Source of the DNA: a virus
Lineage: Duplodnaviria > Heunggongvirae > Uroviricota > Caudoviricetes
Virus record (IMG/VR): IMGVR_UViG_2675903394_000002
Location: 1 to 24,281 of that record
Length of the DNA stretch: 24,281 nucleotides
Reading direction: 5' to 3' (one strand)
A model generated the notes under the pieces. It made no database searches, was not told the DNA's origin, and saw only the letters and a list, made by a program, of their open reading frames with translations. Below are positions 4,693 through 14,334 of the stretch, piece after piece (within the stretch, counting starts at the first letter, position 1; the number at the start of each line of letters is the position of its first letter). A program made the translations under genes and the position numbers.

Positions 4693-4712
4693 CGTGCGAC
4701 CGTGGTCGCACG
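4693..4712 (-). terminator. Perfect 8-bp stem-loop (cgtgcgac-cgtg-gtcgcacg), possible terminator or attenuator downstream of the Rha-like gene
   Basis: Perfect inverted repeat seen directly. On the minus strand it is followed by GUAUAUUUGU (moderately U-rich). Confidence 0.3.
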
Positions 4713-4912
4713 CTCCTGAATACATGCCCTGTTTCTTCCACCCTCGCACAGGACTGGCGAGCATGAGGGACAAACCCGCGAATCATTAGCGCGGTAAAAA
4801 CCCGGTGTGCATCGTTTTTGATTATTTCCGCACACTCGCGCAGAAGGAATTCCCCGTCGGGCTACGGTCATGGTTAATGCGGGAATACAGCGACGATGCA
4901 GCGCAAGATGTG

Positions 4913-5679: not shown

Positions 5680-6147
5680 TTATTTTAAGCACTGCATCCT
5701 GATGTATTCCTGCAACGTCCTTAATGCGGCTTGATCACTGATGATTCCATCTCTGATACCGAGAACGTTTCGTCCAGCAACTGGAGAGAGTTCGACGGTG
5801 GCATCATTGCCCATGCCGGAGGCGCTGGAGGTTTTGGCTGAGGATGGCACAGGACATTTGCCTTTGACGAGCACCCGACCACCATTATTAAGCTTGCGCC
5901 GAAGAGCATCATTTTCAGCTTTCGCATCAGCTAACTCCTTCGTGTATTTAGCATCGAGTGCAGCAACATCACGCTGACGCACCTGCATGTCAGTAATTGT
6001 CGCGTTCGCCAGTTTCAGTTCTCTGGCATTTTTGTCGCGCTGCTCTTTGTAGGAGATGGCGTTATCACGGTAATGATTAACAGCCAACGACAGGCAGACG
6101 ATGATGCAGATAACCAGTGTGGAGATAATCGTGGTAACTCTGCTCAT
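5680..6147 (-). CDS. Rz: Spanin inner-membrane subunit (i-spanin) Rz
   Basis: [55 protein letters not shown]... closely resembles lambda Rz: N-terminal TM helix plus coiled-coil. The start overlaps the endolysin stop (ATGA). Confidence 0.9.
5721..5927 (-). CDS. Rz1: Spanin outer-membrane lipoprotein subunit (o-spanin) Rz1, embedded in Rz in the +1 frame
   Basis: [21 protein letters not shown]...[16 protein letters not shown]: lipobox (VVGC) followed by a proline-rich segment, lying entirely inside Rz, as for lambda Rz1. Confidence 0.8.
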
Positions 6148-6641
6148 TGTTGCCCCCATAAACAGACTTCACGCTCAATCTCACGGCGAGTCATCAGCCC
6201 TTTCCATTGCTTACCGCCAGCGTATGTCCAGCGCCGTAGCTGATCACATGCGCCTTTGATATCGCCCTGGTTTATTTTGCGAAGAAGCGTCGATGTTCTG
6301 AAATTGCCAGCGCCCACGTTGTAAACGAACGAGTAAAGAGCGCCGCGCGTTGTTTCCGGTATATCGACTTTGATGTACGGGTTAATTTGTCTGGCGACCG
6401 TGGCAAGGTCTTTATTCAGGAGGGCTTTGCATTCTGCTTCGGTATACGTTTTACCTGGTATGATGTCTTTTCCGGTGTGTCCGTGACATACAGTCCATAC
6501 ACCAACAATATCTTTGTATGGTATGTAGCTGACACCTTCCAGACCATCGTTACCACTTGGACCAGTGATGAGCACAGACGCTATGGCAACAGCCCCACCA
6601 CCAATAGCAGCAGCAATAGCCTTGCGTAATGATGGCGACAT
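6144..6641 (-). CDS. R: SAR endolysin (lysozyme, phage 21 R-type, 165 aa)
   Basis: N-terminal Gly/Ala-rich signal-anchor-release helix ([18 protein letters not shown]) followed by a T4-lysozyme-like domain; the sequence closely resembles phage 21 R as I recall it. Confidence 0.9.
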
Positions 6642-6856
6642 TATTCACCTCTCGCAGCCTTACGCTTATCTTCTTTAATCTTGAAATAAAGGTTTGTCAG
6701 ATACGTCAGCAAGCCAAATACCAGACTACCCAGCACACCTATTGCCGCCCACTGTGAGGGCGTGACTTTATCGAGCAACTGTAAAAACCAGTACCCGGCA
6801 CTACCTGCTGAGGTGCCATAGGCGACACCCGTTGTTAACTTATCCATGGATTTCAT
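6641..6856 (-). CDS. S: Pinholin, phage 21 S-type (71 aa) with dual-start motif MKSM
   Basis: [71 protein letters not shown]: two TM helices, resembles S21. Ribosome-binding site GAGGTGGAG upstream of the start at 6856. The ORF track extends to 6910. Confidence 0.85.
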
Positions 6857-7123
6857 AACTCCACCTCGCAGATGCGGGTGCAAATTGAGAGAATAAAAAA
6901 TCCCCGACAATTCCAGATGTCAGCGGCCTTAAATATAAAAACAGGCAAATGCCGAGGCCCGCTAATCGTTGCCACTATGAGCGCTGCGACGCCATTTCAT
7001 CCAGACAAGCTATCAGATACGGAAGCCGTGCTGCCGCTTTTACGGCATTGTATTCACTATACTTATCTATTCTGATATCGTTAAATCAACAGAAATAACC
7101 AATATCAGAAGGAACGCATTAAT

Positions 7124-7672
7124 ATGGCGAACAATCTTTTTTATACACTTGACAGGCAGCGCACACTGAAGTCAGGCATGAAAATTGAATTAGCAGAACC
7201 GTACTGCCCAATCGTTCCACTTCAGGCTCATACGAGCTCATTGTTTTCCGACGGTGTATCCCGGCATGCAAATAATCTTTTTTTCAACTACCACATAAAC
7301 CTCGTCAGCTCAGACGAACGATTTGGAGCAATAATAGAAATACTACTGGAAGAACGAAGGAAATCACACTTCCCTGAAAAACCATCACGCTTCCAATCAA
7401 TTTTTGCATGTGAGTCTGTAAAAGAAACCGCCTGGTTCAGAGGCTTTTCAAAATCCCCACTTGACACCCCAATATTTCAAGTCAGCTCATCGTCGAACTA
7501 TCATAGAGGTGATATGAATTTGTTAAATCTGAACTGCTCCCCAGTAGAAGTATCTCAGAGGCTGGATCTTTACTGGAAGGGTGAAACAACACAGATTTAC
7601 GAAGGGTATCAACCATTCTGGGAAGTGCTCATTCCATTGCCAGTTATTATTGGTGAAAGAATTATCGAATAA
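7124..7672 (+). CDS. Hypothetical soluble protein (182 aa), first gene of the inverted insertion between S and Q
   Basis: ORF on the strand opposite to the late operon in an AT-rich insert. No TM segments and no family recognised. Confidence 0.6.
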   Translation: MANNLFYTLDRQRTLKSGMKIELAEPYCPIVPLQAHTSSLFSDGVSRHANNLFFNYHINLVSSDERFGAIIEILLEERRKSHFPEKPSRFQSIFACESVKETAWFRGFSKSPLDTPIFQVSSSSNYHRGDMNLLNLNCSPVEVSQRLDLYWKGETTQIYEGYQPFWEVLIPLPVIIGERIIE

Positions 7673-7862
7673 TGGCTCTGACACCAGAATCATTTCCATA
7701 GCCGAACTGACGCTGACAGATTTTTAATTCGCTTATGGCTTTCTCCATTGCTAATAGCGCGTCTTCAGTACGGTAGCAATCAACCTCAAGAACAAACGTT
7801 TTGAGATTGCTACTATCATTCCCGGCGAAAAGCGCATAGCTGGGTTGACCAGTCTGATTCAT
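7662..7862 (-). CDS. Possible small antisense ORF (66 aa) whose start abuts a G9 tract
   Basis: ORF-track entry; the start ATG at 7862 is immediately preceded on the minus strand by GAGG plus a run of G. It converges on and overlaps the 3' end of the 7124-7672 gene by 11 nt. Could be spurious. Confidence 0.25.
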   Translation of the reverse strand: MNQTGQPSYALFAGNDSSNLKTFVLEVDCYRTEDALLAMEKAISELKICQRQFGYGNDSGVRAIIR

Positions 7863-8014
7863 CCCCCCCCCTCAAACGACGAAACCCGCTCGACGGCGGG
7901 TTTAAGCCACGTGACAAAGTAACCACTCTTAACACGATACAATAGTTTTTGCGTACGCGTTAGCATTTTTGTTAAAGTATAAAAATGTAATTAAACCAGT
8001 ATGTCATCACTACA

Positions 8015-8899
8015 ATGAAATGCATCCGAAAACATCCAGCAATAGCTTATACAGTAATTATTTTAGTTTTTGCCTTAATATACAATTTCACTTGGAGCGT
8101 CAATCCAGATTCTTTCATTAAAAACAACGTTCTCAACTCTACACCTGTATATGATGCCGTTAATTTAGCATATGCGAACAATGAGGTAAAAAAAGAAGCT
8201 CCTGTCAGTGTTTCGAGGGAAGTATTTGCAGAGCAAATTTTAACACTTACAAATCAATTCAATAAGATAATAATTGAAAACTTAGAACTTGAAAAAACAT
8301 TATCTCAGCAGCAAGAAAAATTAAAACAAATTAGTGAAAGACAATCAATAAAGTGGGGCGAAAACACCAAAAAATACATAGCAGACAGTTTGAAAGATTT
8401 ACACAAAACGCTTATCACTAAAAATAGTGAACGTACTGCCATAGCATCTTTAAAAAACAAAACAAATGAAAGTCAGATTAACACTATGCTGGCCGACAAA
8501 GATGAAGAAATAGCCAAAATAAACCTTGAAATAGCGTATAAAGAGTATGATGCTAATGTCTATATCTTATCTCATGTCGGCGACTTTAACGATCCAATAA
8601 TCGTTAATGAGCTTGACGCAATCAATAAAGAAATTGAGAAAACAAGAACAAAAATAATAAACAACAAAAAGAAAATAATGGAGATAAGGAATAAATCTCA
8701 ATCTATGCTGGAGAAACTCAAAAAAGATGACCTTAACTTTTTGGATTTCTTATTTTATAGCATAGGAATATCTACAACGACCACCTTTGGTGATTTGTTA
8801 GCAAATTCAAGACTTATCAGACTGATAGTTTGCGTGCAACTTTTACTATCAATTATAGTTTTAGCTAACGTAACTCAAAGATTTTTATCAAAAAAATAA
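8015..8899 (+). CDS. Hypothetical membrane protein (294 aa): N-terminal TM helix, Lys/Glu/Asn-rich coiled-coil domain, C-terminal potassium-channel-like pore helix/filter/TM module
   Basis: Hydrophobic segment AIAYTVIILVFALIYNFTW at about aa 9-27; heptad-like K/E/N/I-rich middle; C-terminal NFLDFLFYSIGISTTTTFGDLL (nt 8726-8794) followed by TM helix LIRLIVCVQLLLSIIVLANV. Very AT-rich codon usage. Confidence 0.7.
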   Translation: MKCIRKHPAIAYTVIILVFALIYNFTWSVNPDSFIKNNVLNSTPVYDAVNLAYANNEVKKEAPVSVSREVFAEQILTLTNQFNKIIIENLELEKTLSQQQEKLKQISERQSIKWGENTKKYIADSLKDLHKTLITKNSERTAIASLKNKTNESQINTMLADKDEEIAKINLEIAYKEYDANVYILSHVGDFNDPIIVNELDAINKEIEKTRTKIINNKKKIMEIRNKSQSMLEKLKKDDLNFLDFLFYSIGISTTTTFGDLLANSRLIRLIVCVQLLLSIIVLANVTQRFLSKK

Positions 8900-8906
8900 A
8901 AAACAA

Positions 8907-8926
8907 AGCCCTCAAAAATGAGGGCT
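8907..8926 (-). terminator. Rho-independent terminator hairpin (agccctca-aaaa-tgagggct), strongest on the minus strand just downstream of Q; also positioned to terminate the plus-strand 8015-8899 gene
   Basis: Perfect 8-bp stem with 4-nt loop. On the minus strand it is followed by UUGUUUUUUAUUUUUUU; on the plus strand by AAUUUAAA. Confidence 0.6.
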
Positions 8927-8936
8927 AATTTAAACC

Positions 8937-9281
8937 TTAAGATAAGAACGATAAAATCCCGTCCAAAAATCCTAGTGCAGTTTGCAATTCCTTTCTAATC
9001 GTGCCATCTGAACACCTTCTCTTCTTGGCAATAGTGCGTAATGAGATACCAATAACAAAGTGGGCAATTAGTAGCTCATATTCTTCTGGCTTATATTTAC
9101 GCAACCTCGCCACACATCCATCAATCATAAGACCTTCATCATCATCACACTGCATCCGGGACTTTTTGCCATGAGGTAAAAGCCCCTTGAAGCCTGCTGC
9201 TATCGGCTGCCAATCCACACTACTGTTATCTGCTGCAGCCCATGCTCCCCAGCGGTCCAAAACTTCATACATGTCACGCAT
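8937..9281 (-). CDS. Q: Late-gene antitermination protein Q (DLP12 QuuD-like, about 114 aa)
   Basis: MRDMYEVLDRWGAWAAADNSSVDWQPIAAGFKGLLPHGKKSRMQCDDDEG... resembles DLP12 QuuD as I recall it. Ribosome-binding site GGAGAAAG upstream of the ATG at 9281. The ORF track extends to 9335. Confidence 0.8.
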   Translation of the reverse strand: MRDMYEVLDRWGAWAAADNSSVDWQPIAAGFKGLLPHGKKSRMQCDDDEGLMIDGCVARLRKYKPEEYELLIAHFVIGISLRTIAKKRRCSDGTIRKELQTALGFLDGILSFLS

Positions 9282-9365
9282 CAACTTTCTCCACAAAATC
9301 AGGCCAGCACGCCAATTACAAGCAAAAATCAACAAAACAGTATTAGTTGATTGTTATCTCTGACT

Positions 9366-9506
9366 TCATACTCCTGCTCCTGTCAGGGTTTTGGCGTAAT
9401 TCTTCAGTATTCGGTAATCGGTCAAAACAGAACCGGGGAAACGATATAAGCGCAGACGCCCCCAGCGGTGGCGAAGAAGTTCTGCTATATTAAACTCAAA
9501 CATCAT
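9366..9506 (-). CDS. ylcG: Small nin-region protein YlcG-like (46 aa)
   Basis: Manual translation gives [46 protein letters not shown]. The start overlaps the rusA stop. Below the ORF-track size cutoff. Confidence 0.65.
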
Positions 9507-9865
9507 TCATTCCCCATTTCGGTGATGGTCAGTTCCAGCCTCCCACCTTTGGTAACAGGCATCTTCACAACGCGGTAATCAACGACCTGAGCATCATCCA
9601 GCCAGAAACCTGCTTTAGTGAGTGCGTCAAAAGCGGCTTTTTGCAGATTATCCAGGTCACGGCGACGGCGATCCGGCATGTGGCACTCAATGCGGATTTT
9701 CACAGGCATAGCCAGGCCGATATCCAGCATTGCGCTTTTAATGATTCGGGCGACGTTATCGCGGTATGCCTGCCCTTCTGCACTGACGTGCGTGCGCCCG
9801 CGATTATGGCGGTAATAGCGATTATTGCTCGGAGGCCAGGGTAATGTGATACTGTAGGTATTCAC
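9503..9865 (-). CDS. rusA: Holliday junction resolvase RusA (120 aa)
   Basis: [43 protein letters not shown]... is near-identical to DLP12 RusA as I recall it. Confidence 0.9.
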
Positions 9866-10152
9866 GCCTTAATAACCCCCTCTTTCAGCCAGATAACCTG
9901 TGTTCTCGCCATACCTTCCAGCGCGCATTCTTTTGCATATGCAGCATCGACAAAATGTGTGCGGCGGTCGATTTCGTCGTGGCAGGCAGAACATGCAATG
10001 GTGGCAATCAGGTCTGGCGGTTTGATACCGGTACCGCACAATCCAGCCAGCCGGATATGTGCCAGTACAGACGTTTCAGAATTGCCATTACATACGCCAG
10101 GGATTCTTACCTGGCATTCCCGACCACGCGCTGCTTTTCTCAAATCAGCCAT
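9862..10152 (-). CDS. ybcO: YbcO-like nin-region protein (96 aa, Cys-rich putative nuclease)
   Basis: [42 protein letters not shown]... matches DLP12 YbcO. The ORF track extends to 10191. Confidence 0.85.
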
Positions 10153-10984: not shown

Positions 10985-11782
10985 TTACTCTCTGGAAGCT
11001 TTTCTTATCTCTCTTGGTGTTATATTAAAACGATTATGAAATCTTTCTGTAAAACGAGAAGGACACTTATAACCATTTTCTCTGGCAATCTCGCTTATAG
11101 GTTTTACCGTCGTTTGTATAGCAGACAACGCATTATTTAACCTCACATCGTCCAGTATACTTTGGAAACTTACCCCCTCGCTTGCTAGACGGCGATGTAA
11201 TGTAGAAACAGAAATGTAGAGATATCGAGCAACCTTGTTTGCTGTCCATTTTGTGCCGGGTTCGGATAGCAGCAGGTTATAACAACGACTTATCAATGAT
11301 TGTTTACTATATGATAAAAGTAAATGATTAACATGATTCACTCCTAACGAAAGTAGAACGCCCATTGCTAAGTGCTCCTGAATTTTAGTTGAGAAGCCTC
11401 GGGAAACAGATGTTTTTAGTTGCTCCCAACAATATATTAACTCAGGATTCTGAGGTAAAAAGAAACTTGTTTTGTTACGTATTTGATCAGTTACCGTATA
11501 AAGTTTTTGGAAACTCTCAATTAAATCAATGGGTAAGTAAAGCATTTCTGCAAGATAAAGCCCTGCTTCAGGATAATTCTCAATATAAAATTCATAACCA
11601 CAAGGAAATAATATTATTTGATTATTATCAACAGTTAAAGTATGCGTCTCCCAATTGATAACTTTCTTTCCCTGACGGATACGACACAAAGCTGGCATAA
11701 GAGGCTTAACCCTATGAATCTCATGATGTTTATGCATCCGTATTTCTTCGATCTTTAAGTTAGTCTTACCTCTTGCCAGCAT
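10985..11782 (-). CDS. ybcM: AraC-family transcriptional regulator (265 aa)
   Basis: C-terminal AraC-type HTH region (…[41 protein letters not shown]…); size and position match DLP12 ybcM. Confidence 0.85.
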
Positions 11783-11791
11783 ACTCTCACC

Positions 11792-12343
11792 CTACTTTAT
11801 CTCATAAACTGGTGTTATCTCAGCGGTTGCGATTTTATTAGCATTAAGCATATAACCAACTAACGCTCCGCTGGAGTTAGAATCTACAGGAATCTTTTCA
11901 GTTTTTAGAGCCCATACTTTAAACTGGTAATGATGTGGTTTATCTCCTTTAGGAGGACATGCGCCACCAAACCCAGCATAGCCAAAATCATTTCGGCCTT
12001 GAACAGCACCAGTCGGCAGTTTTGTTCCATCACGTCTCCCTGCATCAACGGGCAAATATGTTATTGTTGCTGGAATATTAACAACAGTCCAATGCCACCA
12101 ACCACTGCCTGTAGGTGCATCTGGATCATATACAGTTACGGCAAAGCTTTTGGTACCTTCAGGAACACCAGACCAGGTTAATGAGGGCGATGTATTACCA
12201 CCTTCACACCCAAATCCAGAAAAGACATGAGACGTTGTAAGTTGCTCTCCTGTTTTTATTTCATTACTAGTGACCTGAAATGCTGCAGCCTGCGCAGAAA
12301 ATGTTATGAATGCCAATACAGTTGAAACGATAAGTGTTTTCAT
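11792..12343 (-). CDS. ybcL: Secreted PEBP/YbcL-family protein (183 aa) with signal peptide
   Basis: N-terminal signal peptide MKTLIVSTVLAFITFSAQAAA; resembles E. coli YbcL. Confidence 0.85.
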   Translation of the reverse strand: MKTLIVSTVLAFITFSAQAAAFQVTSNEIKTGEQLTTSHVFSGFGCEGGNTSPSLTWSGVPEGTKSFAVTVYDPDAPTGSGWWHWTVVNIPATITYLPVDAGRRDGTKLPTGAVQGRNDFGYAGFGGACPPKGDKPHHYQFKVWALKTEKIPVDSNSSGALVGYMLNANKIATAEITPVYEIK

Positions 12344-12559
12344 AAAAACCTCTTTGTTATGATCTATCGTTATTTTATTTGATATTCCTTTATCTCATTA
12401 TGCATAAAGGCGCAATGTTTATGCAAAAGCAATCACAATTGTACCCCCAACCCAATTATTTGCCACAATATACACAAAGCACATTGATACTATCTAAAAA
12501 CCCTGCTTTATTATTAGTAATACCTACGAAAGTCGGTGTTATTTTTTAACCTACCATTC

Positions 12560-12609
12560 AAAATACGTGACATACACCATTTTGCTCATAATAATTTGTC
12601 ACGTATTTT
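12560..12609. repeat. Perfect 13-bp inverted repeat (aaaatacgtgaca ... tgtcacgtatttt) with a 24-bp AT-rich spacer in the ybcK-ybcL intergenic region
   Basis: Arms at 12560-12572 and 12597-12609 are exact reverse complements. Confidence 0.6.
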
Positions 12610-12807
12610 CAGTATTTGAATCTGCGACCAAGAGTTCTCACCTAACAAATGATTAAGATTGTATAGCTCATTTACTACCCCAATACAGCCGTACAAAACT
12701 CGCTTGTGGGAGCAAACAAAGTAATTACCCATTAAGTTTCGTCAAAGATAATTAATTCTGTCTTGCACTTTATCACCATAGCATAACTTAAAATCCGAGA
12801 TCATTAT

Positions 12808-14334
12808 TTAGAAATAAATCTCACCATCAACCATATATTTGAGAGCACTTATCGCCTGCTGGGCGGATATTACTTTCATTAAAGGATAGTGTTTAAAAAC
12901 AATGCCATTCATAAAATAGATACCACAGGTTTTATTATCCGTATTAATTATGATTTTTTCGAATGTTTTATAGGCAAGTGTACGGCATAACTCTCGTCCA
13001 TTTTTACTGGTTAAGTCAATAGCATAAAAATCACTGAATGAATTTACACCTTTACTCTTCAAAGTTTTCAATGATACCGAAGCCCTTCGTAATTCCTTAT
13101 CTAATAGTCTTATTTTCTCTGCTATAGCGGTAACTTCAGGCGCGACAGACAATGCAACGATTAAATTATTAATTTTCATCTGAAGCTCAATAATTTTTAA
13201 CTCTAAAGTTTCATTAGCATCTTTCTTGTTTTCAACTGGTTGAATTTTGCTACAATTAAAAAGCAATTCATTAATGATATTATAATCAACCAAATCTCTT
13301 TTTATTGATGGCCTGTCACATCGATGTAATCTTCTCATCGGACAAACATAATAGCCATGCAAACTTCCAGATACCGCATGAACAATCATGGTATTACCAC
13401 AAGCCTCACACTTCATAACTGTTCGAAGTAGATTTATTAGCATAGGATTCTTGCTACTATTGCTAATACCAAAAGGTGCCAACCGAATTTCCTGTACAGC
13501 GTAAAACAAATCATCTGATATAACTCTGGGATAATAGCCAGCGATTTCACTTATCCCTTTCCCTCTTGCACGATATGAAGGTACGCATATACCTATCAGA
13601 GCTTTATTCGCTAATAATTTTTCAATTACAGAAGGTCCCCATGCACTTTCTTTTCCTGAGAAATTCTTTACAGCATGATCATTTAAATACTTGGCTATTG
13701 CATTCAATGAGCGCCTTTCCATCCTGAGTTTAAAAATTAGCTCAATAGTTTTCACCCTGTCGGGGTCTGGAACAAAAGCCGTTCTTTTGTCATCTAAGGA
13801 GAGCCATCTCGGACAAGACGCCGTCATAATCGTACCTGATTCCATTGCATCCTGCCGTTTTTTCTTCCATGATAATTTAACCCGACTTGACTTTATCTCG
13901 CTTTCTTCATTTGCCCTTTGTGCTATAAGTATGGCTTTTATTAATGAATATGGCTCATTCAAAGAGTCAATATTATAGACTGTATTGTCGCAAAGAGTTA
14001 TAACATCAATACCGTGATTCAAAATCAATTTCAGACGTTCAATCGCTTCACCGACTTTTTCTCTTGAAAGTCTGTCCAGACTTTCAACTAACAATGTAGT
14101 TCCTGGCAATATATAACCATGCTCTATAGCATCTAAAAATTCCGAAAAAGCTCCTGATTGTGCATGCTTTCCTTTGAATGCACTTAATCCTAAATCTTCA
14201 TATGTTATGGTATCAAGATAATAATCACTATTTACCTTTAACCATTCAGCAATAAGTCTTCTCTGTCGGTTTAATGAGTCACCAGACATCTGACCTGGTG
14301 ATGAAAATCGCATATATGCTATGGCTTTTTTCAT
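12808..14334 (-). CDS. ybcK: Large serine recombinase (508 aa)
   Basis: N-terminal resolvase-type catalytic motif AYMRFSSPGQ and a Cys-rich region (CPRW…C…CEACG…CPMRRLHRC) typical of large serine recombinases; size matches DLP12 YbcK. Confidence 0.85.
   Translation of the reverse strand: MKKAIAYMRFSSPGQMSGDSLNRQRRLIAEWLKVNSDYYLDTITYEDLGLSAFKGKHAQSGAFSEFLDAIEHGYILPGTTLLVESLDRLSREKVGEAIERLKLILNHGIDVITLCDNTVYNIDSLNEPYSLIKAILIAQRANEESEIKSSRVKLSWKKKRQDAMESGTIMTASCPRWLSLDDKRTAFVPDPDRVKTIELIFKLRMERRSLNAIAKYLNDHAVKNFSGKESAWGPSVIEKLLANKALIGICVPSYRARGKGISEIAGYYPRVISDDLFYAVQEIRLAPFGISNSSKNPMLINLLRTVMKCEACGNTMIVHAVSGSLHGYYVCPMRRLHRCDRPSIKRDLVDYNIINELLFNCSKIQPVENKKDANETLELKIIELQMKINNLIVALSVAPEVTAIAEKIRLLDKELRRASVSLKTLKSKGVNSFSDFYAIDLTSKNGRELCRTLAYKTFEKIIINTDNKTCGIYFMNGIVFKHYPLMKVISAQQAISALKYMVDGEIYF

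Follow-up and report, generated by a model that had tools for sequence, protein, structure and literature searches.

Organization of the Region Between the Early and Late Genes

The stretch of DNA analysed here (the window, 24,281 nucleotides in length) is a lambdoid prophage whose early-right and late genes both lie on the minus strand. Along this strand the replication genes O and P are followed by those for a serine recombinase, a PEBP protein and an AraC regulator, then by YbcO and RusA, then by the antiterminator gene Q, and finally by the genes for holin, endolysin and Rz. NinE and YlcG are called at the corresponding places in near-identical contigs, where the order reads NinE, YbcO, RusA, YlcG, Q and holin. 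Q thus stands at the end of a nin-like early region and ahead of the lysis genes, which is the position typical of its family. The serine recombinase (508 aa), the PEBP-family protein and the AraC-type regulator, to be compared with ybcK/ybcL/ybcM of DLP12, occupy 10985-14334 of the minus strand within the early-right region. The immunity region of the window includes an S24-peptidase repressor and belongs to the YdaS/YdaT type, and long open reading frames (ORFs) are present in the packaging region.

The Q gene (8937-9281, minus strand; stop codon TAA at 8939-8937) encodes 114 aa, the same length that gene callers give in other assemblies. Its product matches PF06530 with an E-value of 3.8e-45 and a score of 153 bits against a cut-off of 26, and this Pfam family comprises the Q proteins of phages 21 and 933W (10.1101/651190). 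It also matches PHROG 79, 'anti-termination protein Q-like', and shows a weak sequence match to the Q21 structures 6P18/6JNX over residues 26-104 (E 5e-4). The window's Q is a predicted antiterminator of the Q21/Q933W family.

Convergent with Q lies a gene on the plus strand (8015-8899), hereafter the cargo gene, which encodes a K+-channel-like protein of 294 aa. This assignment comes from a match to Pfam Ion_trans_2 (E 2.6e-5) and from the names of its homologues, 'ion channel' or 'potassium channel family protein'. The protein begins with a transmembrane segment, continues with about 180 coiled-coil-like residues, and ends with a pore carrying the K+-channel-like motif TTTTFGD and a final transmembrane helix. 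Across Enterobacterales there are homologues of about 295 aa, named 'ion channel', and the closest proteins come, by source name, from E. coli (98% identical) and Citrobacter (81% identical). No family match for the 294-aa protein was obtained with PADLOC or PHROGs, no relatives of it were found in the species-representative genomes searched, and the gene is not in E. coli complete genomes, where the best match spans 16% of 6600-9400.

The cargo gene, its short upstream region and a hairpin at its 3′ side together form a cassette from about 7965 to about 8935, with a GC content of 0.29-0.33 against 0.45-0.55 in the flanks. Its odd composition, its variable presence in related phages and its own terminator are those of a moron or accessory cassette. 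A promoter scan and manual reading of 7930-8014 gave no convincing plus-strand promoter for the cargo gene, and only 51 nt separate its ATG from the -35 element of the late module described below. The idea that this module is the cargo gene's own promoter was rejected because 933W and Sp5 carry the module without a reversed cargo gene.

Between the module and the lysis genes there are two further genes. The first past the module is an ORF of 66 aa on the minus strand (7662-7862), which is called in other assemblies too and belongs to PHROG 10826 of unknown function (E 2.4e-40). A run of nine G on the minus strand (7871-7863) directly precedes its ATG; otherwise identical contigs have 9 or 10 G in this run, and one gene call shifts from 66 to 101 aa. 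This G run may be a slippage-prone sequence or assembly noise. The second is a DUF2441 gene of 182 aa (7124-7672; Pfam DUF2441, PHROG 5663), which lies on the plus strand, against late transcription, and is fragmented in two assemblies (L012 and L014). The space between module and holin is a second cargo slot, in which a Citrobacter prophage has HicA/HicB (L097, 2113-2751).

The lysis genes themselves, all on the minus strand and all assigned by Pfam, begin with a holin of the phage 21 S type (71 aa, 6641-6856) and continue with endolysin (6144-6641) and Rz (5680-6159). All three ORFs are full length, and the sequence immediately 5′ of the holin ATG is common to the essD leader of DLP12. A promoter-like match, TTAACG-17-TATAGT (7084-7056, minus strand), faces the holin gene, and after it comes a weak terminator-like hairpin at 6923-6904 with GGATTTTTTA, 48 nt before the holin ATG. 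This hairpin could shield the lysis genes from stray transcription derived from the cassette.

A Predicted Terminator at the Convergent Junction

A first-pass annotation of this DNA had described a strong terminator right past Q, and this terminator is real. On the minus strand, a stem-loop AGCCCTCA-TTTT-TGAGGGCT at 8926-8907 begins 10 nt past the Q stop; its GC-rich stem has eight pairs, five of them GC, its loop has four nucleotides, and it runs directly into the T-rich tail TTGTTTTTTATTTTTTT (8906-8890), in which 15 of the 17 bases are T. The whole feature (8890-8926), found by pattern scan and by folding, has on the minus strand the sequence of an intrinsic (Rho-independent) terminator, namely a GC-rich stem-loop with an immediate U tract. 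It ranks first among the terminator-like sites of the pattern scan, which number 10 in 6000-10000 against 3.4 +/- 1.7 in shuffled sequences. The 61-nt junction stretch folds with -17.8 kcal/mol (z = -4.8), a value that none of 200 shuffles equals. The junction hairpin is a real, predicted intrinsic terminator, far beyond what chance would give. A search of 6000-10000 against Rfam (E <= 1) returned two matches, one to a snoRNA model and one to RyhB. The terminator hairpin accounts for the RyhB match, which scores 23 bits where the gathering score is 55; the snoRNA match, too, is far under its gathering score, and both were taken as chance.

The stop codon of the 294-aa ORF is at 8897-8899 of the plus strand, 7 nt from the hairpin and inside the T-rich run. 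Its last codons (..KK*) are therefore the antisense of the U tract, and the hairpin lies between two convergent stop codons. The plus-strand tail of the hairpin is AAUUUAAACC, a poor U tract with 3 U in 10 nt.

To which of the two genes does the hairpin belong? A Citrobacter prophage, whose cargo protein is 81% identical and sits in the same slot, keeps the same hairpin (GGCCCTCAAAAATGAGGGCT) while the flanking bases and the last Q codons differ, and the hairpin is absent after a 56%-identical cargo homologue in a non-phage context. For these two reasons the hairpin is considered to belong to the phage-borne cassette and not to Q. The exact hairpin sequence had no match in the species-representative genomes.

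The C-terminal 5-7 residues of Q (8937-8960 of the window, minus strand) vary with the cassette, reading ..DGILSFLS in the window, ..DGVLSML in mEp460, ..DGVLRMV in Stx2a_1447 and ..NGTLLLL in Citrobacter, and DNA similarity to most relatives stops about 20 nt before the Q stop. The exchange junction therefore lies inside the Q tail.

A Predicted Late Promoter Module Downstream of the Cargo Gene

About 1 kb 3′ of Q, at 7970-7872 of the minus strand, is a module of promoter, leader and hairpin which is homologous to that of the Stx phages 933W and Sp5, the latter being near-identical to 933W. By homology to the annotated pR' of 933W, the predicted late promoter (7934-7970) consists of an A-tract at 7970-7966, a -35 element CTAACG at 7963-7958 and a -10 element TATCGT at 7939-7934. 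For the transcription start one can rely on Sp5, in which dRNA-seq placed the pR' start 258 nt upstream of the tR' 3′ end (Sy et al., PMC7547250). Counting back on the Sp5 sequence, this mapped start falls in AAGAG, which corresponds to 7930-7926 of the window, and the start here is most likely A7927, seven bases past the -10 hexamer. Start and initial transcribed region, again predicted by homology, are contained in 7911-7930 with the sequence AAGAGTGGTTAC. This 12-mer has one exact copy in the window (7930-7919), starts 1006 nt past the Q stop, and is present in 7/7 comparison loci. A -10-like hexamer in the initial region, TACTTT at 7921-7916 (+7 to +12), could act as a sigma-dependent pause element. 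In most relatives it reads TACTTC, without the final T, and in 933W TACATT.

The spacer of the promoter contains an 8-bp palindrome, GCGTACGC (7958-7951, minus strand), as a candidate Q-binding element. In phage 21 the Q-binding element lies within -40 to -1 of pR', which is compatible with the spacer palindrome and is no proof of it. QuuD of DLP12 and the Q of 933W are each about 48% identical to the window's Q. The window-type Q goes with the palindrome GCGTACGC, QuuD of DLP12 with TACGTACGTA (L004, about 4712-4721) and the 933W Q with TACGATCGTA (L007, about 1169-1178), and such change with the type of Q would fit a binding element that co-varies with its protein.

Alignment of variants together with folding places a leader hairpin, the predicted first terminator, at 7872-7903: the stem-loop AAACCCGC-CGTCGA-GCGGGTTT at 7903-7882 and then an interrupted U tract, CGTCGTTTGA. 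Since the U tract is interrupted in the window (GGGTTTCGTCGTTT), and shorter than in 933W or DLP12, the leader hairpin may terminate poorly. No strong second terminator is evident in the window, where a single weak one stands at 6923-6904. In Sp5, the mapped 3′ end is at the second terminator, 258 nt from the start (PMC7547250), from which it follows that the conserved hairpin may be a partial terminator only. In both 933W (L007, 1227-1249) and Sp5 (L096, about 770-795) this conserved hairpin carries seven T and is situated about 26-48 nt past the start. Termination at the first hairpin of these phages may be partial; alternatively, the short RNA that ends there may be missed by RNA-seq.

The conservation of the module was read from an alignment of 29 distinct variants. 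The -10 hexamer is TAnnnT throughout, with T1, A2 and T6 invariant and positions 3-5 free (TATCGT, TAATCT, TAAGCT, TAATGT, TATTGT, TATGCT and TATCAT were seen), and a pattern with these three positions fixed and the middle free is the signature expected of a -10 element. The -35 is weak, being CTAACG with an 18-nt spacer in the window and TTTACG with 16 nt in 933W and DLP12. The upstream A-tract occurs in most variants, even beside unrelated cargo DNA. GTTAAGAGTGGT is nearly invariant, and the leader hairpin is found, in variant form, in nearly all of the 29 (L046 is the exception), with its T run kept despite sequence change and with some variants differing on both stem sides. In all, a stretch of about 100 nt, CTAACGCGTACGCAAAAA.TATTGTATCGTGTTAAGAGTGGTTACTTCGCCACACAGCTTAAACCCGCCG...GCGGGTTTT, recurs 3′ of unrelated cargo genes; its copy in the window is at 7963-7872 of the minus strand and retains every position that is invariant among the 29 variants. 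We place the predicted late promoter at 7963-7934 with its start near 7927, the promoter activity being ascribed to it by homology.

The first-pass annotation had argued that no late promoter stands beside Q and that it must be sought elsewhere, with 6857-7123 and 7680-8014 of the minus strand as examples. A simple sigma-70 scan indeed finds no minus-strand site in 8937-9335, and there is no copy of the module there. What cannot be kept is the argument that lack of room next to Q settles the matter, because in 933W the annotated pR' extends over the final 12 bp of the Q gene. Of the two proposed intervals, the second contains the predicted module promoter (7963-7934), and the first holds only a generic promoter-like match. 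It was homology that found the module; the simple scan listed the match at 7084-7056 and did not list the pR' site itself. Two manual candidates, TTAGAA-18-TAGGAT in Q and TTGAGT-15-TATAAT at the 3′ end of the cargo gene (8878-8852), were set aside as weak or badly spaced and as showing no conservation beyond coding need.

Generality of the Displaced Layout

How common is such a separation of Q from its promoter? Viral contigs with a Q at least 85% identical (80 in number), contigs with the exact cargo protein and annotated records were put together to give 97 loci, in which the module was located by a profile of its sequence. In 93 of these loci the module is found on the Q strand, 616-2960 nt past the Q stop, and the remaining four are contigs that end within 1 kb and are too short to tell; a module adjoining Q is seen in none of the 93 informative loci of this Q clade. 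Among the relatives with the displaced layout are isolated phages in GenBank, for example mEp460 and vB_EcoS-569R4. DNA searches from the Q region brought up many phages and prophages; in these two, in Stx2a_1447 and in two E. coli prophages, Q is followed almost immediately by one or two reversed genes. The block of Q, cargo, module and lysis genes found in the window is repeated in many assemblies.

About 23 junction classes can be told apart in the DNA between Q and the module; its ORFs are mostly reversed and its GC content is 0.31-0.48. In about 18 of these classes a GC-rich hairpin starts between -3 and +25 nt from the Q stop, with a sequence that differs from class to class. The Q strand bears the better U tract in the window's class, in that of mEp460, in L020, L022 and L069 and in the Citrobacter copy, and the cargo strand bears it in L034, L087, L094 and DLP12. 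Since the strand carrying the U tract changes from cassette to cassette, the site as such does not determine which strand is its main target.

Probable Insertion of a Cassette Between Q and the Late Promoter

The reading which we consider likely is that insertion of a cassette split Q from an otherwise intact late module, that the hairpin past Q is the cassette's terminator at a convergent junction, and that late transcription starts about 1 kb downstream. Its observed basis is the hairpin, the inheritance of this hairpin together with the cargo, the homology and conservation of the module, and the displaced position that the module has in every informative close relative. According to this model, an AT-rich cargo cassette would have been inserted between Q and its late regulatory module. 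On the Q strand, the hairpin would stop, just past Q, early-operon polymerase that is without an antitermination factor, and this would spare the cargo gene antisense transcription and also prevent an onward run toward the late genes. For the cargo mRNA, too, the hairpin is probably the end point, reached before the transcript enters Q as antisense, with less efficient termination on this strand. The lambda early operon is N-antiterminated; if the same were true of the window's early operon, the hairpin would be bypassed in lytic growth and be relevant mainly at low or basal transcription.

Late transcription would begin near 7927 from the pR' with its -35 at 7963-7958 and its -10 at 7939-7934. 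In the conserved initial transcribed region polymerase would pause and take up Q, which acts in trans. Once modified by Q, it would pass the leader hairpin (7903-7882) and continue across the 66-aa ORF and the reversed DUF2441 gene to reach holin (6856), endolysin and Rz. It had been supposed that late transcripts would have to read antisense through the cargo genes. This would not hold for the 294-aa gene, since pR' is downstream of it, and it would hold for the reversed DUF2441 gene (7124-7672), which the transcripts would cross.

It may be asked whether the hairpin chiefly serves the cargo gene, forming and stabilising the 3′ end of the plus-strand mRNA. The T run on the Q strand would then be there only because the AT-rich gene ends in A-rich codons (KK*). 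Its location 7 nt past the cargo stop, its inheritance with the cargo gene and the better U tract on the cargo strand in L034, L094, L087 and DLP12 would all suit such a function. The plus-strand tail AAUUUAAACC nevertheless has 3 U only, and in the Citrobacter copy, whose flanks have diverged, it is again the Q strand that bears the longer T-rich tail (TTATTTATTTTTT). We regard a primarily cargo-serving hairpin as unlikely, although it deserves more credit than the alternatives that follow.

A second possibility is that late expression is impaired, which the first-pass annotation had raised as well; the insertion would then have uncoupled Q from its promoter and left a defective prophage. The interrupted U tract of the module hairpin, the reversed gene between promoter and holin, and the defective state of DLP12, which has the same layout, might be taken as signs of it. 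Q acts in trans on its binding site, as is established for lambda Q, so a gap of 1 kb from the promoter should not matter; the displaced layout is present in 93/93 informative relatives, including the isolated phages mEp460 and vB_EcoS-569R4; the block recurs in assemblies; and the window has full-length lysis ORFs, long ORFs in the packaging region and all invariant positions of the module. With no support left for impairment, we consider it very improbable.

It is hardly conceivable that the hairpin is instead the equivalent of tR', served by a late promoter inside the 3′ coding part of Q with a very short leader RNA. The precedent for this is 933W, whose annotated pR' overlaps the last 12 bp of Q with a hairpin within 50 bp. 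In the window the minus strand has no promoter-like site in 8937-9335, the single copy of the module is at 7930-7919, and the 3′ end of Q is without conservation beyond coding need, its last codons being dependent on the cassette. Equally implausible is the match at 7084-7056 as the late promoter: the promoter scan lists it with 9/12 matches, but 13 such matches were obtained against 8.3 +/- 3.9 expected by chance, the upstream region of the DUF2441 cassette that contains the site is not conserved, no mapped pR' is homologous to the match, and the weak hairpin at 6923-6904 intervenes between it and holin.

The preferred reading, a cassette inserted between Q and an intact module, gives a place to the most likely origin of late transcription in this prophage, and the layout turns out to be a fairly ordinary one, seen also in DLP12 and many other related prophages. 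To find a terminator directly after Q does not point to a defective or unusual late switch. For annotation, placing pR' directly after Q fails across this Q clade, including some Stx2a and Stx1a phages, and a better landmark is the conserved module itself: CTAACGCGTACGCAAAAA, about nine variable bases, TAnnnT and GTTAAGAGTGGTTAC.

The Gap as a Site of Accessory Genes

The gap between Q and the promoter is also a handy place in which to seek new prophage-borne defence or conversion genes. Cassettes found between Q and the module in other phages have PADLOC matches to PD-Lambda-5_A (L021, 3.9e-24), NsnA/PD-T4-2_A (L033, 9.8e-46), a caspase-like protein (L068, 1.2e-17), an MBL-fold protein (L090, 1.6e-11) and PDC-M53A (L005, 1.6e-31). 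Judging from sequence, the slot looks like an anti-phage defence hotspot. As a tentative extension, which we put forward without counting it as probable, the gap might be a hotspot for exchange of reversed, terminator-capped accessory cassettes, the channel-like protein of the window might be a membrane-depolarising gene product for abortive infection or exclusion, and the terminator might guard against antisense early transcription. The literature searched contains no description of the Q-to-pR' gap as an insertion hotspot, which is no proof that none exists.

Comparison with Known Systems

One known late switch is the Q-pR'-tR' (6S RNA) cassette of lambda, in which a constitutive promoter is followed by a nearby site for pausing and Q loading, then by a terminator and the late genes (10.1101/651190). 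The window would follow the same logic, but in lambda the promoter is directly after Q with no gene between. The lambda Q protein is itself a member of a different family, PF03589.

In the manner by which the foreign gene is accommodated, the window resembles phage morons, in which an AT-rich, independently transcribed gene with a terminator is inserted between two phage genes, and it also resembles the shared terminators of convergent genes in having one hairpin between two convergent stops. In contrast to morons, the slot here is upstream of the late promoter and not inside the late operon, the cassette is reversed, and its terminator faces the early operon.

A known system of the same layout is DLP12 of E. 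coli K-12, a defective prophage, where quuD is followed by a reversed nmpC, the module and then essD, rrrD and rzpD. Both share the order of a recombinase/PEBP/AraC block, ybcO, rusA, ylcG and Q, with a phage 21-type holin next. The cargo of DLP12 is the porin gene nmpC, interrupted by IS5, and that of the window is a channel-like gene. The hairpin of DLP12 starts 33 nt past the quuD stop with its T-rich tail on the nmpC strand, and, unlike the window, DLP12 has no second cassette between module and holin. Lambda hybrids that carry the qsr' substitution of DLP12 are viable, and their viability would mean that such a layout works.

In the elements of the switch themselves, the closest counterparts are 933W and Sp5, whose Q is of the same Pfam family and whose pR' region gives rise to the StxS RNA. 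Their promoter is homologous to that of the window in the -35, the A-rich spacer and the TAnnnT -10, their initial transcribed region differs very little from the window's (TAAGAGTGGTTAC.TTGCCAC), and the AACCCGCCG...GCGGGTTT hairpin that comes next is shared. In 933W, pR' is annotated as TTTACG-16-TATCAT and stands, with qut and terminator, directly after Q. The Q proteins of 933W and the window are only about 48% identical, and the spacer palindrome is TACGATCGTA in the one and GCGTACGC in the other. At 258 nt from the start 933W possesses a second terminator, of which the window shows no evident counterpart. The main difference is one of place: the pR' of 933W and Sp5 overlaps the Q stop codon, and that of the window is about 1 kb away behind a reversed gene. 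In all but its adjacency to Q the module of the window matches the 933W/Sp5 type, with the pause element and the first terminator as candidates, and it is in its distance from Q that it departs from the textbook arrangement.
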